64,000 nucleotides of DNA from a phage: sequence record PZ338878.1, one strand, 5' to 3'. Under the pieces are notes generated by a model. That model ran no database searches, was not told where the DNA came from, and saw nothing but the letters and a program-made list of their open reading frames with translations. Both the position numbers and the translations under genes were made by a program. Below, one piece after another: positions 4,528-16,971 of the stretch (its first letter is position 1; each line of letters begins with the position of its first letter).

Positions 4528-5250
4528 TTAAGCAATGATTGCTGCGATATTAGGTTTAACAAAGGTAGATGGCTTCATAATTTTACCTTTGTCATCAAAG
4601 AATACGTATACCTTTTGAACTTCGTTATATACAGCATGTACTCCAGTATAAGAACCTTCTGCACGATCTTTGCTTCGCATCTCGATAGCATCACACTCTT
4701 TTTCAAGAGCTTCAACAATATCCTTAGTTTCCCAAATAGCCAGGAGTTGCTTCTTGGTAGGATACTTGGACTCATTGCTATTCAACACTTCACGCATAAC
4801 CTTCTTCTCGTTATAAACAGAACGCACCAAAGTATCTCGTGCCATACGTGTAAGTGTAAGAGACATTAGGGCAAATTGCAAGTCATTTTCTACCATTTTA
4901 TCAAATTCAATGATAACATCGTAGATGTTTTCTGCCAGAACATCTCCTGTCGGCATTTCCAGAGCTTTATCAACACCTTCTTTACCAAAGAACATAAACG
5001 CCAGGTAGGATGCTACCACAAAAATATCTGCTGCTGCATCAAGTAATTCAACGTGATCATTTTCCTGTGCTGCTGCTTGGAACTCTTTTAGTTCTTCTCG
5101 TACAAAAGAAAGTTGAGCTTCAAACATCTCTTGAGTAAATTCTGGAGTTACGCCTCCACGTGCCTTAGCATTCCAAGCAACAATTTGATCGGCAGCTTTG
5201 ATAAAGAAGCTATTGTCCACTTTTACTTGTTTGAAAAAATTCTCGATCAT
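4528..5250 (-). CDS. MazG-like nucleoside triphosphate pyrophosphohydrolase (putative)
   Basis: EExxE...ExxD-type acidic helix signature (REELKEFQAAAQENDHVELLDAAAD). Confidence 0.4.
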   Translation of the reverse strand: MIENFFKQVKVDNSFFIKAADQIVAWNAKARGGVTPEFTQEMFEAQLSFVREELKEFQAAAQENDHVELLDAAADIFVVASYLAFMFFGKEGVDKALEMPTGDVLAENIYDVIIEFDKMVENDLQFALMSLTLTRMARDTLVRSVYNEKKVMREVLNSNESKYPTKKQLLAIWETKDIVEALEKECDAIEMRSKDRAEGSYTGVHAVYNEVQKVYVFFDDKGKIMKPSTFVKPNIAAIIA

Positions 5251-11309: not shown

Positions 11310-11717
11310 CTAATTAATGTCAGCACTATGATTGTTGAGAGTATAGGATACTCCATCGCCCAAGTCAACATGAATCTCAACTCCTAACTGTCTTTCTAAT
11401 GGTAAACGTTTTGAGAATTGATAATTACAAAATTTACAGTCTAAGTCAAGCAACTCATGTTTGCTTAAACCTGCAACGATAACTTTGCTTCCCACTGTCC
11501 ACTCAATACCTTCAAAGTTATCTCTTCTTTTCAAAATGTCAAGTAAGAAGATGATTTGTTGCCACTCCGTAGACAAGTCTTCTTCATAAAATGCAGAACA
11601 AAAAGTTTTATCATCGTAGAAAGCATACATTATGCCTCCATCTATTGTTTCACTTCTAACGTAACGTGTGACCCTCATTATTCCCTCCTGTATGGCTCTG
11701 TAACGAGCTAATAGCAC
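11310..11717 (-). CDS. hypothetical protein, first gene of the leftward early block
   Basis: ORF with AGGAGGG RBS; borders the divergent intergenic region. Confidence 0.4.
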   Translation of the reverse strand: MLLARYRAIQEGIMRVTRYVRSETIDGGIMYAFYDDKTFCSAFYEEDLSTEWQQIIFLLDILKRRDNFEGIEWTVGSKVIVAGLSKHELLDLDCKFCNYQFSKRLPLERQLGVEIHVDLGDGVSYTLNNHSADIN

Positions 11718-11809
11718 CTAAGATATGCAATCACCTTACCTCACAGTAAAACTCGTTACAATCGTTTTTAGGAGGTTCAGGTTGTACTTAAAAATAATCT
11801 AAAAAGGTG

Positions 11810-11838
11810 TTGACAAACGCAAAAAAGTATGCTACCCT
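11810..11838 (+). promoter_or_regulatory. sigma70-type promoter (TTGACA, 17-nt spacer, TGc-TACCCT)
   Basis: Perfect -35 and TG-extended -10 sharing the TATG-N-TA architecture of the other promoters here; transcript would begin at a CCCCC...GGGGG stem (11841-11871). Confidence 0.35.
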
Positions 11839-12019
11839 AACCCCCGAAAAACGCCGAGCGCAGCGAGGGGGTGTTATCTAATCTTGTGATACATGATCTA
11901 ACAGACAACTGAGTAGTCTACATATAGCACTATGTTATGTCTATAATACTAACATACATGCTCTATACTAACAATAGATTATTTATTAATTTTATTATTA
12001 ATTAAATAATAAATATCTA

Positions 12020-12048
12020 TTGACTTTAGATCTATCTGTATGTAGAGT
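12020..12048 (+). promoter_or_regulatory. sigma70-type promoter upstream of the prs-like gene
   Basis: TTGACT, 17 nt, TAGAGT preceded by TG; AT-rich upstream tract. Confidence 0.5.
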
Positions 12049-12087
12049 AGAGAACATAAAGTCCTAACTCAGCTAAGGAGATAAAAA

Positions 12088-12981
12088 ATGAAAGTTAGTA
12101 TTCTGCATGGTGTTGACTGTTATGTTACTGATGTAGACGTTAAAGTGTTTACATTCTCTGGTGGAGAACAACATGTTCAATTAGATATGAATCTATCAGA
12201 TTTCAATCATGCTACAGACAGAATCTTACTCACTTTAGAAGTAAGATCTGCTAAAGACTTGATGACTTTGGTTATGACTAAGAATGCATTGGACAATATG
12301 CTATATCATAAACCATATTGTGTTGATTTACTCATGTTGTATGTGCCGTATGCACGACAAGACAGAGTGTGTGAGCCTGGGGAAGCATTCGGAGTTAAAG
12401 CATTTGCTTCTATAATTAATTCATTAAATTTCTCACGTGTTATCGTTGCTGATCCGCATAGTGATGTTACTCCAGCAGTGTTTGACAGACTCTGTGTAAT
12501 ACCTCAAGAAGAGATTGCTTACGAAACTTTAAAGTGGAAGTTACGTATGGAGAATTTTGCTCTTGTTAGCCCTGATGGTGGTGCTCTTAAGAAAATATTT
12601 AAATTATCTAAGAAAATGTCTTTAGATGTGTTCTGTGCAGAGAAGGTTAGAGATACCGCAACAGGTGCTATTGTTCGTACAGACATTTCTGTACAGGATT
12701 TCAATAAGCGTAACCTGATGATCGTAGATGATATCTGTGATGGTGGTAGAACTTTTATCGAATTGGCTAAAGTGCTACGTGCTCGTAACGCAGGTAAGAT
12801 TGAGCTATATGTTACGCACGGTATCTTTTCTAAAGGTCTTAAAGAGTTAAGTGAGCACTTTGACTGCATTCATTCCCTTAATGTGTGGGAAGATAACATC
12901 CAAGAAGATTCTGGTGTTCTTGTTAAGAATCAGTCAGATTTGCAACAACAAATTGTATCTCCATACGTGTGGAATTTTTAA
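12088..12981 (+). CDS. prs: ribose-phosphate pyrophosphokinase (PRPP synthetase) family protein; candidate ADP-ribose pyrophosphokinase (Adps) of a NARP1-type pathway
   Basis: PRPP-binding loop MIVDDICDGGRTF; AAGGAG RBS; adjacent to nadV-like gene. Confidence 0.75.
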   Translation: MKVSILHGVDCYVTDVDVKVFTFSGGEQHVQLDMNLSDFNHATDRILLTLEVRSAKDLMTLVMTKNALDNMLYHKPYCVDLLMLYVPYARQDRVCEPGEAFGVKAFASIINSLNFSRVIVADPHSDVTPAVFDRLCVIPQEEIAYETLKWKLRMENFALVSPDGGALKKIFKLSKKMSLDVFCAEKVRDTATGAIVRTDISVQDFNKRNLMIVDDICDGGRTFIELAKVLRARNAGKIELYVTHGIFSKGLKELSEHFDCIHSLNVWEDNIQEDSGVLVKNQSDLQQQIVSPYVWNF

Positions 12982-12991
12982 ATAATAAGTG

Positions 12992-13020
12992 TTGACAATA
13001 GGGAGTATGCTTAGTAAGAT
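12992..13020 (+). promoter_or_regulatory. sigma70-type promoter upstream of the nadV-like gene, with overlapping inverted repeat
   Basis: TTGACA, 17 nt, TAAGAT; 8-bp inverted repeat GGGAGTAT / ATACTCCC (13001-13008 and 13019-13026) brackets the -10. Confidence 0.5.
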
Positions 13021-13052: not shown

Positions 13053-14786
13053 ATGAATATTTTTGCACCTTTTGCTACTGATTGGTACAAACCTGGTCAC
13101 AAGCAGATGTACAACCAAAATACAAAACTTATTTTCTCTAATTTAACTCCTCGTAATGATAAAAACTTTGCACACTATGCAGATCGTGAAGCACGTGGTG
13201 TGATTGTTTTAGGTATTCGTCGAGCAGTCACTGATGCTCTTGTAACTATGTGGGATAGCTTCTTTAAAATGTCTCGTAGTGCAGCAGTAAATAAATTTTA
13301 TCGTATGTCTAAAAATGCATTAGGTGCTTCTGCTCCTTCTGCTGAATGTTGGGGAGAATTGCACGATTTAGGTTATCTTCCGCTGGAAGTTCGATCTCTG
13401 CCAGAAGGTGTTTTGTGTCCTATTGGTGTTCCTGTGTTTACTGTGCATAATACTTTAGAAAAATTCTTTTGGTTAACTAACTATGTGGAAACACTACTGT
13501 CAGATGAAACTTGGAAGACAATGACTAATGCCACAGCAGCTTTTCAGTATAAGCGTATCGCTATGGCATATGCGATGGCAACGTGTGATAATATTGATCA
13601 CGTTAACTTCCAGTGTCATGATTTTAGCCTACGTGGTTTAAGTAATATCGAAGATGGTTATAAGAGTGGTATCGCTCACTTGGCATCGTTCACAGGAACA
13701 GATAATATTCTGGCTATTGAAACTGTGCATGACTATTATGGTATTGATTATGATCAGTTTGTTGCAGGTTCGATTCCGGCAACAGAACATTCAGTAGCAA
13801 CGACTAACATTGGAGCTATTGTTGAAGATCTGAAGAAACATTTCCCACATCTTAAAGATGATGTAGATGGGCTTCGTTATGTAGCAGAAAAAGAGTTTCT
13901 TCGTCGTTATATCGAAGAAATTGTTCCAGAAGGTTTTTGTTCATATGTAGCAGACTCTTATGACTATTGGGCTGTATTGACTCGCATTCTGGTAGAATTG
14001 AAAGATTCCATTATGTCACGAAATGGTCGTCTTGTTATTCGTCCAGATTCAGGAGATCCGGTTAAAGTTGTTGCAGGATACAATGTTGAATCTTTTGATA
14101 ACTATGAAGACCTCTTAAATAATGGTATTGCGACAGCCACTGAAGTAGTTCATTTGGCTGATGTTAATAAGTATTACAATGTTCTTCAGGATTGCAGTGT
14201 TGCTGACTGTATTGATGAAACTTATGAGATTCCTTATTGTGAAGCAGTAGGTTCTATTCAAATCCTTTGGGAAGTGTTTGGTGGTACTATCAACCGAAAA
14301 GGCTACAAGGTTCTTGATCAGCATATCGGTATGATTTATGGTGATTCTATTACTGTTGAACGAGAACACGAGATCTTACGCCGACTGAAGAAGAAAGGTT
14401 TTGCAGCTTCCAATATTGTATTTGGTGTTGGTAGTTATACTTATCAGTTCAATACACGAGATACTTTTGGTTTTGCTGTTAAAGCAACAGGTAGTATTAT
14501 CGGTGAACACGAAATTTTGGTAAGTAAGGAGCCTAAAACTGATCCTGGTAAACGCTCTGCAAAAGGTTTTATTAAGGTTGTTAAGGATACCAATGGTAAT
14601 CTGTCTCTTGTAGATAATCTTTCTTTTAAAGATATCCAGGATGAAGACAATGAGTTACAAGTTATCTTCAAGGATGGTAAGGTTATTACACCACAAGTAG
14701 AAGGCCGTGATGAAACATTCACTGATATCCGCAACCGTGTTGACGTAGAGGTTCTTCGTACTATGGGAACCATCCAGGTTGACTAA
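13053..14786 (+). CDS. nadV: nicotinamide phosphoribosyltransferase family protein; candidate nicotinamide ADP-ribose transferase (Namat) of a NARP1-type pathway
   Basis: 577 aa; NAMPT-like N-terminus (FATDWYKPGHKQMY); GGAG RBS. Confidence 0.75.
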   Translation: MNIFAPFATDWYKPGHKQMYNQNTKLIFSNLTPRNDKNFAHYADREARGVIVLGIRRAVTDALVTMWDSFFKMSRSAAVNKFYRMSKNALGASAPSAECWGELHDLGYLPLEVRSLPEGVLCPIGVPVFTVHNTLEKFFWLTNYVETLLSDETWKTMTNATAAFQYKRIAMAYAMATCDNIDHVNFQCHDFSLRGLSNIEDGYKSGIAHLASFTGTDNILAIETVHDYYGIDYDQFVAGSIPATEHSVATTNIGAIVEDLKKHFPHLKDDVDGLRYVAEKEFLRRYIEEIVPEGFCSYVADSYDYWAVLTRILVELKDSIMSRNGRLVIRPDSGDPVKVVAGYNVESFDNYEDLLNNGIATATEVVHLADVNKYYNVLQDCSVADCIDETYEIPYCEAVGSIQILWEVFGGTINRKGYKVLDQHIGMIYGDSITVEREHEILRRLKKKGFAASNIVFGVGSYTYQFNTRDTFGFAVKATGSIIGEHEILVSKEPKTDPGKRSAKGFIKVVKDTNGNLSLVDNLSFKDIQDEDNELQVIFKDGKVITPQVEGRDETFTDIRNRVDVEVLRTMGTIQVD

Positions 14787-15533: not shown

Positions 15534-15609
15534 GGTTCCATAGCTCACTGACGAGAGCGCACACCTCATAAGTGTCGAGGGCAGGGATTGTAACCCTGGG
15601 GAACCACCA
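15534..15609 (+). tRNA. tRNA-Met (anticodon CAT; Ile2 or initiator not excluded)
   Basis: 76 nt; acceptor GGTTCCA/GGGAACC (one 7:66 mismatch); anticodon loop CTCATAA; non-canonical T-loop ATTGTAA; CCA encoded. Confidence 0.5.
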
Positions 15610-15640
15610 TTTAAAAGGAGATGCTATGCATCTCCTATAT

Positions 15641-15726
15641 GCAAGTGTGGTGGAATTGGTGATACACATTGTGCTTAAAACGCAACGCTTAAATGATTGA
15701 GGGTTCGAATCCCTCCACTTGCACCA
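15641..15726 (+). tRNA. tRNA-Leu (anticodon TAA)
   Basis: 86 nt class II; acceptor GCAAGTG/CACTTGC; anticodon loop CTTAAAA; long variable arm; T-arm GAGGG-TTCGAAT-CCCTC; A73; CCA encoded. Confidence 0.7.
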
Positions 15727-15728
15727 AC

Positions 15729-15834
15729 GCCTAGTAGGGTATTTGGTAATTCCGAGGCCATCAAAGCCTGAAAAATATGTTAGACCGCTTTGTCTAACTA
15801 AATACGAAATATGGTTCGATTCCATAACTAGGCT
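15729..15834 (+). ncRNA. tRNA-like element, 106 nt, non-canonical (possible stable small RNA, pseudo-tRNA or suppressor-like)
   Basis: Perfect 7-bp acceptor pairing GCCTAGT/ACTAGGC and canonical T-arm TATGG-TTCGATT-CCATA, but a 40-nt internal region with a 7-bp hairpin (15779-15798); candidate anticodon loop CATCAAA; no CCA encoded. Confidence 0.3.
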
Positions 15835-15866
15835 TCAATTTAAATAATAATTTTAGTAAAAATATC

Positions 15867-15895
15867 TTGACATTCACTTAGTTTTTTGTTATAGT
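15867..15895 (+). promoter_or_regulatory. sigma70-type promoter inside the tRNA array (TTGACA, 17 nt, TGt-TATAGT)
   Basis: Perfect -35 plus TG-extended -10, about 12 nt upstream of the next tRNA-like gene. Confidence 0.5.
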
Positions 15896-15906
15896 TACTG
15901 TGAAAA

Positions 15907-15988
15907 CGGGGTGTATCTCACCTGACTTCTAATCAGGCGTTAACCGAGTAATTGGAGTATGCAGGTTCGAATCCTGTCACCCCGACCA
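15907..15988 (+). tRNA. tRNA-Arg (anticodon TCT)-like, non-canonical D region
   Basis: 82 nt; acceptor CGGGGTG/CACCCCG; canonical anticodon arm CCTGA-CTTCTAA-TCAGG; T-arm GCAGG-TTCGAAT-CCTGT; CCA encoded; only 5 nt where the D-arm should be and a 23-nt region before the T-arm. Confidence 0.45.
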
Positions 15989-16006
15989 AAAAGTTTTAAA
16001 AACTAC

Positions 16007-16036
16007 TTGACAAGCAAGATAGTTTTATGTTAGATT
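16007..16036 (+). promoter_or_regulatory. sigma70-type promoter inside the tRNA array (TTGACA, 18 nt, TGt-TAGATT)
   Basis: Perfect -35 plus TG-extended -10, about 15 nt upstream of tRNA-Ser. Confidence 0.5.
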
Positions 16037-16051
16037 TAAAGTATGATAACG

Positions 16052-16141
16052 GGAAGGTAGGGCGCAGCGGTGCGCAACCAGGTTTGAACCCTGGCCCATT
16101 GTAGCGATACGGTGATGGTTCGACTCCATTATCTTCCTCCA
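16052..16141 (+). tRNA. tRNA-Ser (anticodon TGA)
   Basis: 90 nt class II; acceptor GGAAGGT/ATCTTCC; anticodon arm CCAGG-TTTGAAC-CCTGG; 19-nt variable arm; T-arm GATGG-TTCGACT-CCATT; CCA encoded. Confidence 0.7.
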
Positions 16142-16159
16142 AATTCAACTAGGAGCTTT

Positions 16160-16312
16160 ATGAATTATAAAACTATTGGACAGGTTGTTACCGGAGTTAA
16201 GATTGTAGATAATAAAGTTGTTTATGAGTATTCTAATCTTCAACAATCTGAAGATGGTAAAAATATTCGTATGGTAAAAGCAGAACAAAAAGATTCCGGT
16301 TGTTTTGAATAA
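16160..16312 (+). CDS. small hypothetical protein (50 aa) between tRNA genes
   Basis: AGGAG RBS then ATG at 16160; the ORF-track start at 16112 lies inside tRNA-Ser. Confidence 0.3.
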   Translation: MNYKTIGQVVTGVKIVDNKVVYEYSNLQQSEDGKNIRMVKAEQKDSGCFE

Positions 16313-16320
16313 TTAAGAAC

Positions 16321-16406
16321 GGTAGATTGGTGAAATGGTAGCCACAACAGTTTGCTAAACTGTCGTCGGAAACGGCGTGTAGGTTCAAGTCCTACATCTA
16401 CCGCCA
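16321..16406 (+). tRNA. tRNA-Ser (anticodon GCT)
   Basis: 86 nt class II; acceptor GGTAGAT/ATCTACC; anticodon arm ACAGT-TTGCTAA-ACTGT; long variable arm; T-arm GTAGG-TTCAAGT-CCTAC; G73; CCA encoded. Confidence 0.7.
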
Positions 16407-16540
16407 AGTTATCTTTAATGTAGCTTGTAATCTTACTTTAATAGAGTAAACTTTCGGCAGATGGCCTCCACCATCTTACCGATACCCTAATACTTCATAG
16501 TCAAGTGCCGCAAACACTGGCTATTTTAAAGATAATTTAT

Positions 16541-16616
16541 ACATCGTTAGCTTAGTTGGTAGAGCAAGGGGCTTTTAACTCCAAGGTCGAAGGTTCGAAT
16601 CCTTCACGATGTACCA
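16541..16616 (+). tRNA. tRNA-Lys (anticodon TTT)
   Basis: 76 nt; acceptor ACATCGT/ACGATGT (A1-U72); D-arm GCTT-AGTTGGTA-GAGC; anticodon loop CTTTTAA; T-arm GAAGG-TTCGAAT-CCTTC; CCA encoded. Confidence 0.65.
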
Positions 16617-16621
16617 AACAC

Positions 16622-16708
16622 GTAGGTATCGCATAGCGGCAATTGCTGGAGACTGTAAATCTCCTGCCCTTCGGGGCTTCGTTGGTTCGAGTCCAACTAC
16701 CTGCACCA
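16622..16708 (+). tRNA. tRNA-Tyr (anticodon GTA)
   Basis: 87 nt class II; acceptor GTAGGTA/TACCTGC; anticodon arm GGAGA-CTGTAAA-TCTCC; 16-nt variable arm with TTCG loop; T-arm GTTGG-TTCGAGT-CCAAC; CCA encoded. Confidence 0.7.
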
Positions 16709-16715
16709 AATTAAA

Positions 16716-16800
16716 GATGGATTGGCCTAGTGGTTGGGCGACGGACTGTTAATCCGTGAACGAAAGTTCTAGCAAGGTTCAAATCCTTGATCCATCGCCA
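16716..16800 (+). tRNA. tRNA with Asn anticodon (GTT) but a class II-type long variable arm
   Basis: 85 nt; acceptor GATGGAT/ATCCATC; D-arm GCCT-AGTGGTT-GGGC; anticodon arm ACGGA-CTGTTAA-TCCGT (as E. coli tRNA-Asn, from memory); 15-nt variable arm with GAAC/GTTC stem; T-arm CAAGG-TTCAAAT-CCTTG; G73; CCA encoded. Confidence 0.55.
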
Positions 16801-16879
16801 AATAGTGCTTGTAGAGTTAATAGAAACCTCTAGAATTTTCTAGAATTGTAGGTATAAAATCCTACCAAGCAAATATTTT

Positions 16880-16954
16880 GCTCCTATCGTATAACGGCTA
16901 TTACGGTTGCCTTGTAAGCAACTTATCAGGGTTCGAGTCCTTGTGGGAGCACCA
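16880..16954 (+). tRNA. tRNA-Thr (anticodon TGT)
   Basis: 75 nt; acceptor GCTCCTA/TGGGAGC; anticodon arm GTTGC-CTTGTAA-GCAAC; T-arm CAGGG-TTCGAGT-CCTTG; CCA encoded. Confidence 0.7.
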
Positions 16955-16971
16955 ATTTTAACTCTAAAGGA

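Follow-up and report, generated by a model that had tools for sequence, protein, structure and literature searches.

A strongly conserved promoter and leader-hairpin module in the divergent control region of a phi92-like phage

The 64,000-nucleotide stretch of phage DNA analysed here (sequence record PZ338878.1; the whole stretch is referred to as the window) comes from a Justusliebigvirus, a phi92-like phage that infects Escherichia coli, and contains at positions 11679–12087 an intergenic control region between genes that are read in opposite directions. To the left lies a minus-strand gene (11310–11678) for a 122-aa homologue of Phi92_gp106A with no Pfam domain. To the right, on the plus strand, follow a phosphoribosyl pyrophosphate (PRPP) synthetase-like gene (12088–12981; annotated Phi92_gp107 homologue, Pfam domains Pribosyltran and Pribosyl_synth), a nicotinamide phosphoribosyltransferase gene (NadV-like, 13053–14786; Pfam NAPRTase, E = 6e-38) and, downstream of these nicotinamide adenine dinucleotide (NAD)-salvage genes, a cluster of 16 transfer RNA (tRNA) genes (14 by Rfam; 15534–18410). 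The region is of an ordinary kind, a divergent early promoter region, and it holds a well-defined, strongly conserved and unannotated unit that consists of a promoter, P1, and a hairpin predicted at the start of its transcript.

An earlier reading of the letters of this stretch, referred to below as the original prediction, had described a gene-free region of 370 bp between the opposed genes. The opposed flanks stand, but the length does not: GTG at 11717 was rejected as the start of the leftward gene because the phi92 annotation uses the ATG at 11678–11676 with its AGGAGG ribosome-binding site, and the gap therefore measures 409 bp. At the other end, the PRPP-synthetase-like gene has its ribosome-binding site AAGGAG and its ATG within 12075–12090 (plus strand). 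These limits follow from the list of open reading frames (ORFs) and from the phi92 record, in which gp106A (leftward) and gp107 (rightward) flank the equivalent gap and ribosome-binding sites are the sole annotation inside. The 1.2 kb around the gap are 97–99% identical to about 56 GenBank Justusliebigvirus phages, phi92, PHB05 and ECGD1 among them. The records MG065639, MG065645, MG065656 and MG065689 are named 'Campylobacter phage', yet they are 97.6% identical to E. coli phi92-like phages here, and the host label looks doubtful. When the window was re-read, every sequence feature listed in the original prediction was found where it had been placed, and the label 'NAD module' for the rightward genes is a fair one because these carry phosphoribosyl-transferase/synthetase and NAPRTase domains.

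Tandem promoters in the divergent gap

Two predicted rightward promoters of the host sigma-70 type lie in the gap. P1 (11810–11838, plus strand) combines the -35 hexamer TTGACA (11810–11815), a 17-nt spacer, TG at 11830–11831 and the -10 hexamer TACCCT (11833–11838), and P2 (12020–12048, plus strand) combines TTGACT (12020–12025), a 17-nt spacer and TAGAGT (12043–12048), with a predicted start near 12055. A profile was built from 11 other intergenic promoters of the window; the phage's own class can be written as TTGACA, about 17 nt, (T)G-n-TAnnnT. This profile ranked P2 14th and P1 22nd of 127,916 positions, most of the higher ranks being the 11 training sites. A generic sigma-70 scan lists P2 (9 of 12) but not P1, since TACCCT shares just three of six positions with TATAAT. 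Set against the extended -10 type of sigma-70 promoter, P1 has a near-consensus -35, a 17-nt spacer, TGn and a -10 with A at the second and T at the sixth position, and P2 has the hexamers and the spacing of a sigma-70 promoter. Among 13 members of the genus no site varies between 11801 and 11865, which covers P1, and both P2 hexamers are likewise invariant; P2 equivalents occur in the related phages and the metagenomic contig described below, with a sequence that differs between lineages. The profile ranks and the conserved hexamers make the two tandem rightward promoters of the original prediction, at 11810 and 12020, credible. Upstream of P1, an A-tract-rich stretch (AAAAATAATCTAAAAAGG, 11786–11809, plus strand) resembles an UP element and may act as one, and the upstream sequence is A/T-rich in all module copies.

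On the leftward side, the profile and generic scans found no strong conserved promoter in the gap. The best candidate (11915–11943, minus strand; TAGACA, 17 nt, TAGACT after TG; profile rank 64, generic score 9 of 12) is doubtful because its -35 varies in the genus and Tr1, a Citrobacter relative, has lost the -10. A weak alternative read from the sequence (11731–11759, minus strand; TTGTAA, 17 nt, TAAGGT) is invariant in the genus, and at the matching place Tr1 and two Klebsiella phages have good leftward promoters of the form TTGACT/TTGACA-N17-TACCAT/TATCAT. The window has better leftward promoters within the leftward block, at 11368 and 10771. A perfect isolated TATAAT, pointed out in the original prediction, is indeed present at 11942–11947 (plus strand) but is not conserved: A11943 is C in 2 of the 13 genus members, and the hexamer is absent from Tr1 and the Klebsiella phages. 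A minus-strand stem followed by T5 (11852–11865), picked up in terminator scans, is probably incidental, as the T run (A5 on the plus strand) is missing from the other lineages.

Between P1 and P2 the ORF list contains no plus-strand ORF of at least 30 aa, in agreement with the original prediction, and terminator scans found no plus-strand intrinsic terminator-like site at 11846–12020; the first strong plus-strand terminator is at 18,524, past the tRNA cluster. P1 transcripts should therefore cross P2 and enter the NAD-salvage genes with a leader of 242 nt, and the leader of P2 transcripts would measure about 33 nt. A small leader peptide was rejected, since only unconserved ORFs of 4–25 codons are present. 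The 54-codon coding sequence of the Eryne and 92CQ annotations is broken in the window. Small 'hypothetical protein' genes are also drawn across P1 and the hairpin (equivalents of window 11725–11889) in the records PQ529420, PV682554, OR525700, MT932211, OR515479 and PQ360875; such genes are probably spurious, because the reading frame varies from record to record and is cut short in the window (25 codons).

A promoter-hairpin module with three copies per genome

Relatives of the gap beyond the genus were found by DNA similarity (Citrobacter phage Tr1), through a neighbouring protein (Klebsiella phages phi1_175008 and KP13-26) and by a DNA pattern scan (metagenomic contig L214). Over five lineages, the gap aligns with a mean column identity of 61%, and its longest invariant stretch is made up of the P1 -10 region and the hairpin core. 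The invariant block reads ATG-n-TACCCTA, C-CGAA and then GCCGAGCG-N-AGCGAGG, which corresponds to the -10 region and the first ~25 nt of the predicted transcript. A search with the 45-nt consensus of this block returned two matching places per Justusliebigvirus genome as well as matches in Phapecoctavirus, and this search together with further searches and sequence reads yielded ten module copies. All ten, from the five lineages, share TTGAC, ATG, TACCCTA and CGAGCG-(N or NN)-AGCGAG, with 13–16 nt between the -10 and the core; the layout is TTGAC(A/T), a 17-nt spacer, TGn, TACCCTA, 13–16 nt and the CGAGCG-(N or NN)-AGCGAG hairpin. The module ranges over the Stephanstirmvirinae and one metagenomic phage, and it is unannotated in all records examined.

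A scan of the complete 148,885-bp genome of a congener, which comprises four transcription units, found three copies. Copy A is the P1 module of the gap and sits at the divergence point. Copy B, found 2.5 kb into the other leftward unit, leads into a small ORF with no A+T-rich tract in between, and at least 56 genomes share it with 100% identity over 95 nt. One Phapecoctavirus copy likewise runs straight into protein-coding genes without such a tract. Copy C runs opposite to the genes on either side of it, in Justusliebigvirus as well as in Phapecoctavirus (OZ035773.1 about 100,415–100,545, minus strand, found as L501 1–545 and the end of L500; L495 1204–1345; L497 1203–1345). Its body contains ACTAAC twice, a motif also repeated in the copy-A leader, and about 90 nt past it comes a hairpin, GAGTATAT...ATATACTC, followed by TTTAT; copy C looks like a small-RNA gene conserved in the two genera. 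Far from being a local oddity, P1 belongs to a set of three paralogous promoter-hairpin modules in each genome. The gap itself is supported as the main divergent control region of the genome, at one of two transcription divergence points, which agrees with the divergent control region of the original prediction.

Neither a host origin of the module nor a special class of TACCCT promoters withstood the searches. The module gave zero matches in 5,426 complete E. coli genomes. The exact 14-mer GTATGCTACCCTAA behind a correctly spaced TTGACA occurs in roughly 9 unrelated viral contig groups, and among the matches listed for a TTGACA-N11-GTATGnTAnnnTAA scan (at least 27 distinct) the -10 was TATAAT in 9 of 27 and contained CCC in none. 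Since TATAAT dominates and CCC is missing among these matches, TACCCT seems to be a minority variant of a common promoter layout.

The predicted P1 start, the G of a conserved GAA 8 nt past the -10 (11846, plus strand), was placed from the alignment of the module copies: seven of the ten have a G 7–8 nt after TACCCT followed by AA, and the remaining three start on A. From here the leader is predicted to fold into a 5'-terminal hairpin (11846–11876, plus strand) with an invariant core, CC-GA-GC-GCA-GC-GA-GG at 11854–11868, and a variable lower stem. Two C-G pairs, tandem G.A/A.G pairs, a G-C and a C-G pair and a GNA triloop make up the core; over the module copies the loop reads GCA, GAA, GTA, GATA or GGGA, so that the middle base or bases alone vary. 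RNAalifold predicts the core and the lower stem from four lineages, and from four whole copy-A leaders it returns this hairpin, beginning at the predicted +1, as the sole consensus structure. In a covariation count over the ten copies 82.9% of cells are paired, compared with 30–42% with slid partners, and the covariation score of 0.349 (0.176 in shuffles) was reached by 0 of 500 shuffles; the copies are kin and these figures overstate their independence, although the slid controls share the same kinship. Pair 59–78 is CG in three copies, UA in three, UG in three and GU in one, and pair 61–76 is CG in six and AU in three. Because each G-U pair would become an A.C mismatch on the opposite strand, the structure belongs to the sense strand and is most simply RNA. 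Minimum-energy folds leave 0–5 unpaired 5' nt in 9 of the 10 copies, counted from the start site as read from the sequence.

The original prediction had drawn a different structure at the start of the first transcript, a stem of CCCCC (11841–11845) and GGGGG (11867–11871). Both runs are present (11841–11871, plus strand), but as a conserved structure the stem gives way to the inner hairpin at 11854–11868 with its covarying lower stem. It is genus-specific, being missing from Tr1, the Klebsiella phages and L214, the length of the G run varies within the genus, the CCCCC lies upstream of the predicted P1 start, and the stem folds no better than shuffled sequence (z = -0.95).

No Rfam family matches the hairpin at threshold. 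The only sub-threshold match is RF02987 GA-cis (21.1 bits vs a gathering score of 34.7; E = 0.023–0.057), which was not found in Tr1, L050, L096 or L097. In its 3' hairpin this family shares the core (Cc-GA-gc-GaAa-gc-GA-gG), combined with a G.G mismatch and a lower stem of 3 bp; however, the alignment lays the 5' hairpin of the family on the promoter and carries a 61-nt insert where the model has 31 nt, and the phage loop is mostly a triloop. The phage hairpin is not a member of GA-cis. Its tip corresponds exactly to GCGNAGC (with C, A or T as N) or to GCGNNAGC (GATA, GGGA), the sequences of the DNA mini-hairpins of Hirao and co-workers, which are unusually stable as DNA and have been reported at the G4 origin, RSF1010 ssiA and the N4 virion-polymerase promoters (PMC13037366). 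Unlike these, the phage tip stands on tandem G.A pairs and a covarying stem with G-U pairs, past a sigma-70 promoter, an arrangement that suits RNA over single-stranded DNA. We know of no N4-type polymerase in the Stephanstirmvirinae.

The core GCCGAGCGNAGCGAGG is widespread in bacterial, viral and metagenomic contigs, where just some cases are clearly non-coding repeats or terminator-like, and many matches in G+C-rich DNA could simply be coding. Often after CCCGAA(GGG), it recurs in non-coding settings distant from the phage, at L096 (about 4,890–4,975) and L097 (about 1,540–1,860), both on the minus strand and with the same element in L163, L210 and L230, and at many loci among L098–L366. 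A metagenomic viral contig has it in tandem arrays, Sphaerisporangium genomes contain it as a multi-copy repeat, and in giant-virus contigs it forms hairpins with a T or A run behind them. A universal structured element was rejected, since the flanks of the core are barely more complementary than shuffles (0.81 vs 0.55 pairs), as was a hammerhead-like core, whose CUGAnGA...GAAA the flanks do not fit. TACCCT beside the hairpin in the unrelated contigs L256 and L277 is about what chance would give (roughly 2 cases).

The leader hairpin as a possible transcript stabiliser

The reading that we favour is that P1 and P2 are tandem early promoters for the NAD-salvage and tRNA unit and that P1 transcripts carry a stabilising hairpin at their 5' end. 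For the chain as a whole we see about an even chance; the promoters are much more certain than this, and the stabilising step is less so. In this scheme host sigma-70-type polymerase would drive the rightward unit, which has no strong terminator until about 18.5 kb, from both promoters. P1, with its consensus -35, 17-nt spacer, extended -10 TG, unusual invariant TACCCT and C-rich discriminator, would probably start at the conserved G of GAA, and the first ~30 nt of its RNA would fold into the invariant top C-GA-GC-GNA-GC-GA-G on a covarying lower stem that reaches the 5' end. This stem-loop may shield P1 transcripts against 5'-end-dependent decay by RppH and RNase E, and the outcome would be a long-lived mRNA with a 242-nt leader beside a short-leader mRNA from P2. 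At the very least, the A+T-rich tract just ahead of P2 would serve as an UP-like or bent-DNA element. The sequence anatomy, the conservation, the covariation and the number of copies are shown by the analysis, while the use of the promoters, the position of the start, the folding of the hairpin in RNA and its stabilising effect are inferred.

Both halves of this scheme have known counterparts. The early promoters T7 A1/A2/A3 and those of T5 are tandem strong promoters read by the host sigma-70 RNA polymerase, and the phage arrangement is like them in that serial host-type promoters, A/T-rich upstream and with a consensus -35 and a 17-nt spacer, head an early unit. P1 differs from them in its invariant poor -10, TACCCT, which is offset by TGn and a perfect -35 and is always tied to a leader hairpin. 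E. coli mRNAs are stabilised by stem-loops at the 5' terminus; the reference case is said to be the ompA leader, studied by Emory, Bouvet and Belasco in 1992. As in the ompA leader and the polypurine stabiliser of the Bacillus phage SP82, the phage hairpin would begin just a few nucleotides into a long untranslated leader. In contrast to those stabilisers, for which it is unneeded, the top of the phage hairpin is invariant across genera, and its role is a predicted one.

Several points weigh against this reading. Stabilisation alone leaves the invariance of TACCCT unexplained, since other phage promoters vary their -10, and the hairpin top is invariant and not merely paired, a pattern that suggests recognition by a factor. 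Copy C is antisense to its neighbours, and so the module is not always an mRNA leader. The lower stem of the window copy is the weakest of the set, with an alternative register that leaves 4 unpaired 5' nt, and single-sequence fold energies do not improve on those of shuffles (z -0.05 to -0.95). The extreme A+T tract and the repeat cluster exceed what a 20-bp UP element needs.

Replication origin, factor recognition and small RNA

The main rival to the stabiliser reading, and one that could hold together with promoter function, is that the region is a transcription-activated or transcription-primed replication origin, in which P1 reads into repeats and an A+T tract that serves as the DNA-unwinding element. 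We regard this as possible, with clearly less probability than the stabilised leader. Known phage origins provide the model: the primary origin of T7 has two promoters followed by an A+T-rich stretch, T4 oriF and oriG have a promoter with a downstream unwinding element, and the lambda origin has iterons of 19 bp beside an A+T-rich stretch. The gap likewise has a phage promoter that reads into an A+T-rich, unwinding-type tract flanked by short repeats; its repeats are far shorter than the lambda iterons, the module also occurs away from A+T tracts, and the origin is a putative one read from sequence.

The core of the tract (11974–12019, no strand) is partly palindromic, with TTAATTAA at 11998–12005, and lies in a low-GC zone at 11929–12062; it contains the lowest-GC 60-mer of the window (8.3%) and of the whole congener genome (10%, with 0.002% of the 60-mers that low). 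The other divergence point of the congener, at 76 kb, has no comparable tract, so that extreme A+T richness is no general trait of divergent promoter regions here. The tract with its TATTAATTAA core is retained in Tr1 and the Klebsiella phages, and its length shifts in the 13 genus members by indels of 11–12 bp at 11977 and 11999. A 12-bp insert, AATTAAATAATA, is found in 5 of the 13 and an 11-bp insert in one, each about one helical turn. The GenBank record of phage inny annotates a repeat_region at the tract. A physical genome end in the tract was considered, since the ALITA record (PP359570.1; L005, L006) starts and ends there at about window 11973, and was rejected; the break is probably an assembly break in low-complexity DNA, because no other record breaks there.

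Just upstream of the tract are the AT-rich near-direct repeats of the original prediction (CTATAATACTAACA at 11941–11954 and CTATACTAACA at 11963–11973), which proved non-random. CTAACA starts at 11898, 11949 and 11968 (cluster at 11895–11975, plus strand; ATACTAACA occurs twice, at 11946–11954 and 11965–11973), three copies where 0.077 would be expected over the 174-nt P1 leader (Poisson 7e-5, with the motif picked post hoc), and three CTAAC within 80 nt occur in the P1 leader alone in the 64 kb. Also upstream of the tract lies a 17-bp palindrome, AGACAACTGAGTAGTCT (11903–11919, no strand), a candidate protein-binding site that is single-copy in the window and overlaps the -10 of the minus-strand promoter candidate. 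The block around it is identical at 24 of 26 positions in Tr1, where the two central mismatched bases are swapped (A/A to T/T), the pattern of a candidate dimer-binding site with free central positions. As further support, mini-hairpins with the tip found here are reported at priming or initiation sites such as those named above, and the global minimum of the cumulative GC skew falls at 12,036 in the window and at 140,143 in the congener, on the copy-A hairpin.

This minimum carries less than it seems to, since all four GC-skew turning points of the congener fall exactly at strand switches and the skew therefore adds nothing beyond gene orientation; a skew switch independent of gene orientation was not found. 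The authors of the rV5 study report that the skew turns of their phage likewise coincide with strand switches (PMC3606486). No DnaA box with at most one mismatch was found in the region. The repeats are short (6–9 bp), unevenly spaced (51 and 19 bp) and unrecognisable in the Klebsiella phages, and Tr1 retains two of the three CTAACA. The module occurs at two other places without an A+T tract, L214 retains P1, the hairpin and P2 but lacks the tract, and the position of the tract is exactly that of an UP element for P2. For the origin suggested in the original prediction, the A+T extreme, the skew minimum, the repeats and the reading-in of P1 thus stand as circumstantial support, while the explanation of the skew by gene orientation and the missing DnaA box count against it.

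A factor that recognises the invariant hairpin is a less probable alternative, one that we consider unlikely. Here the hairpin would be a loading site for a factor that alters the RNA polymerase or the transcript, as at lambda nut boxB with N, in HK022 put RNA or at the ops hairpin that RfaH reads in non-template DNA, and transcription from the three module promoters would differ, for instance through its processivity, through antitermination or through a timed shut-off. The invariance of TACCCT and of the hairpin top, beyond pairing, exceeds what a stabiliser needs and leaves room for such recognition. The middle loop bases alone vary, as expected of a GNA/GNNA fold that presents a fixed surface, and the loop set GCA, GAA, GTA, GATA and GGGA fits the two mini-hairpin classes (PMC13037366), GAUA being no GNRA loop. 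The -10 and the discriminator are conserved together with the hairpin in all copies at the constant distance of 13–16 nt, and two of the three copies are found at the head of one of the four transcription units or close to it, copy A where transcription diverges and copy B 2.5 kb into its unit. Lambda nut and HK022 put are likewise short conserved hairpins just past early promoters; in the phage, a conserved boxA, a known N-like partner and downstream terminators to override are all missing, and the loop and stem are different.

The 6.5 kb downstream of P1 and P2 contain no terminator to override, no candidate binding protein was identified, the ops consensus GGCGGTAGNNTG is matched at just 7 of 12 positions, and the G-U pairs of the lower stem favour RNA over DNA. 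A boxA of the lambda type (CGCTCTTA or TGCTCTTTAACAA) beside the hairpin was not found. The boxA-like TGCTCTATA at 11959–11967 lies 90 nt from the hairpin and was rejected as a nut boxA, since G11960 is A in 10 of the 13 genus members, which have TACTCTATA, and the motif is absent from other lineages (Klebsiella phages, L214). A joint version, to which we give a similarly low probability, would make the module a dedicated cis-element that marks three transcription starts per genome for special treatment. A factor of the phage or of the host would read its hairpin, either in the nascent RNA or in the displaced non-template DNA strand as a mini-hairpin. Copy A would pass its transcript to the repeats and the A+T tract and so to replication, and copy C would yield a small RNA that has ACUAAC in common with the copy-A leader and that might base-pair where the first NAD-salvage gene begins.

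That P1 itself yields a discrete small RNA, as the original prediction had allowed and which here would be a regulator or decoy made of the 5' hairpin and a CTAAC-rich body ending before P2, is very improbable, because no terminator separates P1 from P2. Copy A has its own promoter but no terminator was found, only an all-A-U palindrome between 11846 and 12020; conservation is limited to the 5' hairpin, the four copy-A leaders having no conserved structure beyond it; and copy B runs directly into a gene. In favour count the missing ORF, a fold energy of the leader of z = -2.06, and copy C, which with its downstream hairpin, TTTAT and two ACTAAC fits the definition of a small-RNA gene better than copy A. 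There is also a predicted pairing: ATACTAAC, present twice in the P1 leader (11946–11972), is complementary to GTTAGTAT in codons 3–5 of the PRPP-synthetase-like gene (12094–12101; region 12094–12109), and RNAfold pairs the two in the P1 transcript with a probability near 1, the P2 transcript having no upstream partner. However, the pairing is genus-specific and not seen in Tr1, and the 5-bp arm is broken in most genus members.

Further observations concern the rightward genes. An inverted repeat, GGGAGTAT...ATACTCCC (12985–13020), between two NAD-salvage genes embeds a promoter, TTGACA-N17-TAAGAT, with its stem spanning the spacer and the -10. The phi92 record has a 151-nt 'hypothetical tRNA' inside the NadV gene (L001 5346–5496, window about 13645–13795); neither ARAGORN nor Rfam finds a tRNA at the window equivalent. 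Several strong phage-class promoters are interspersed in the tRNA cluster, which ends at a strong terminator at 18524–18542.

Phages of the phi92-like and phAPEC8-like groups are being widely collected for therapy. For these phages the analysis provides a short, precisely bounded and strongly conserved promoter-leader unit, three per genome, together with one specific candidate origin. The small 'hypothetical protein' genes that several GenBank records draw over P1 and the hairpin are probably spurious. Should the hairpin stabilise mRNA, it would offer expression design in E. coli a compact and portable 5' element; if it is read by a factor, it would point to a new step in the control of early transcription in a large group of phages.

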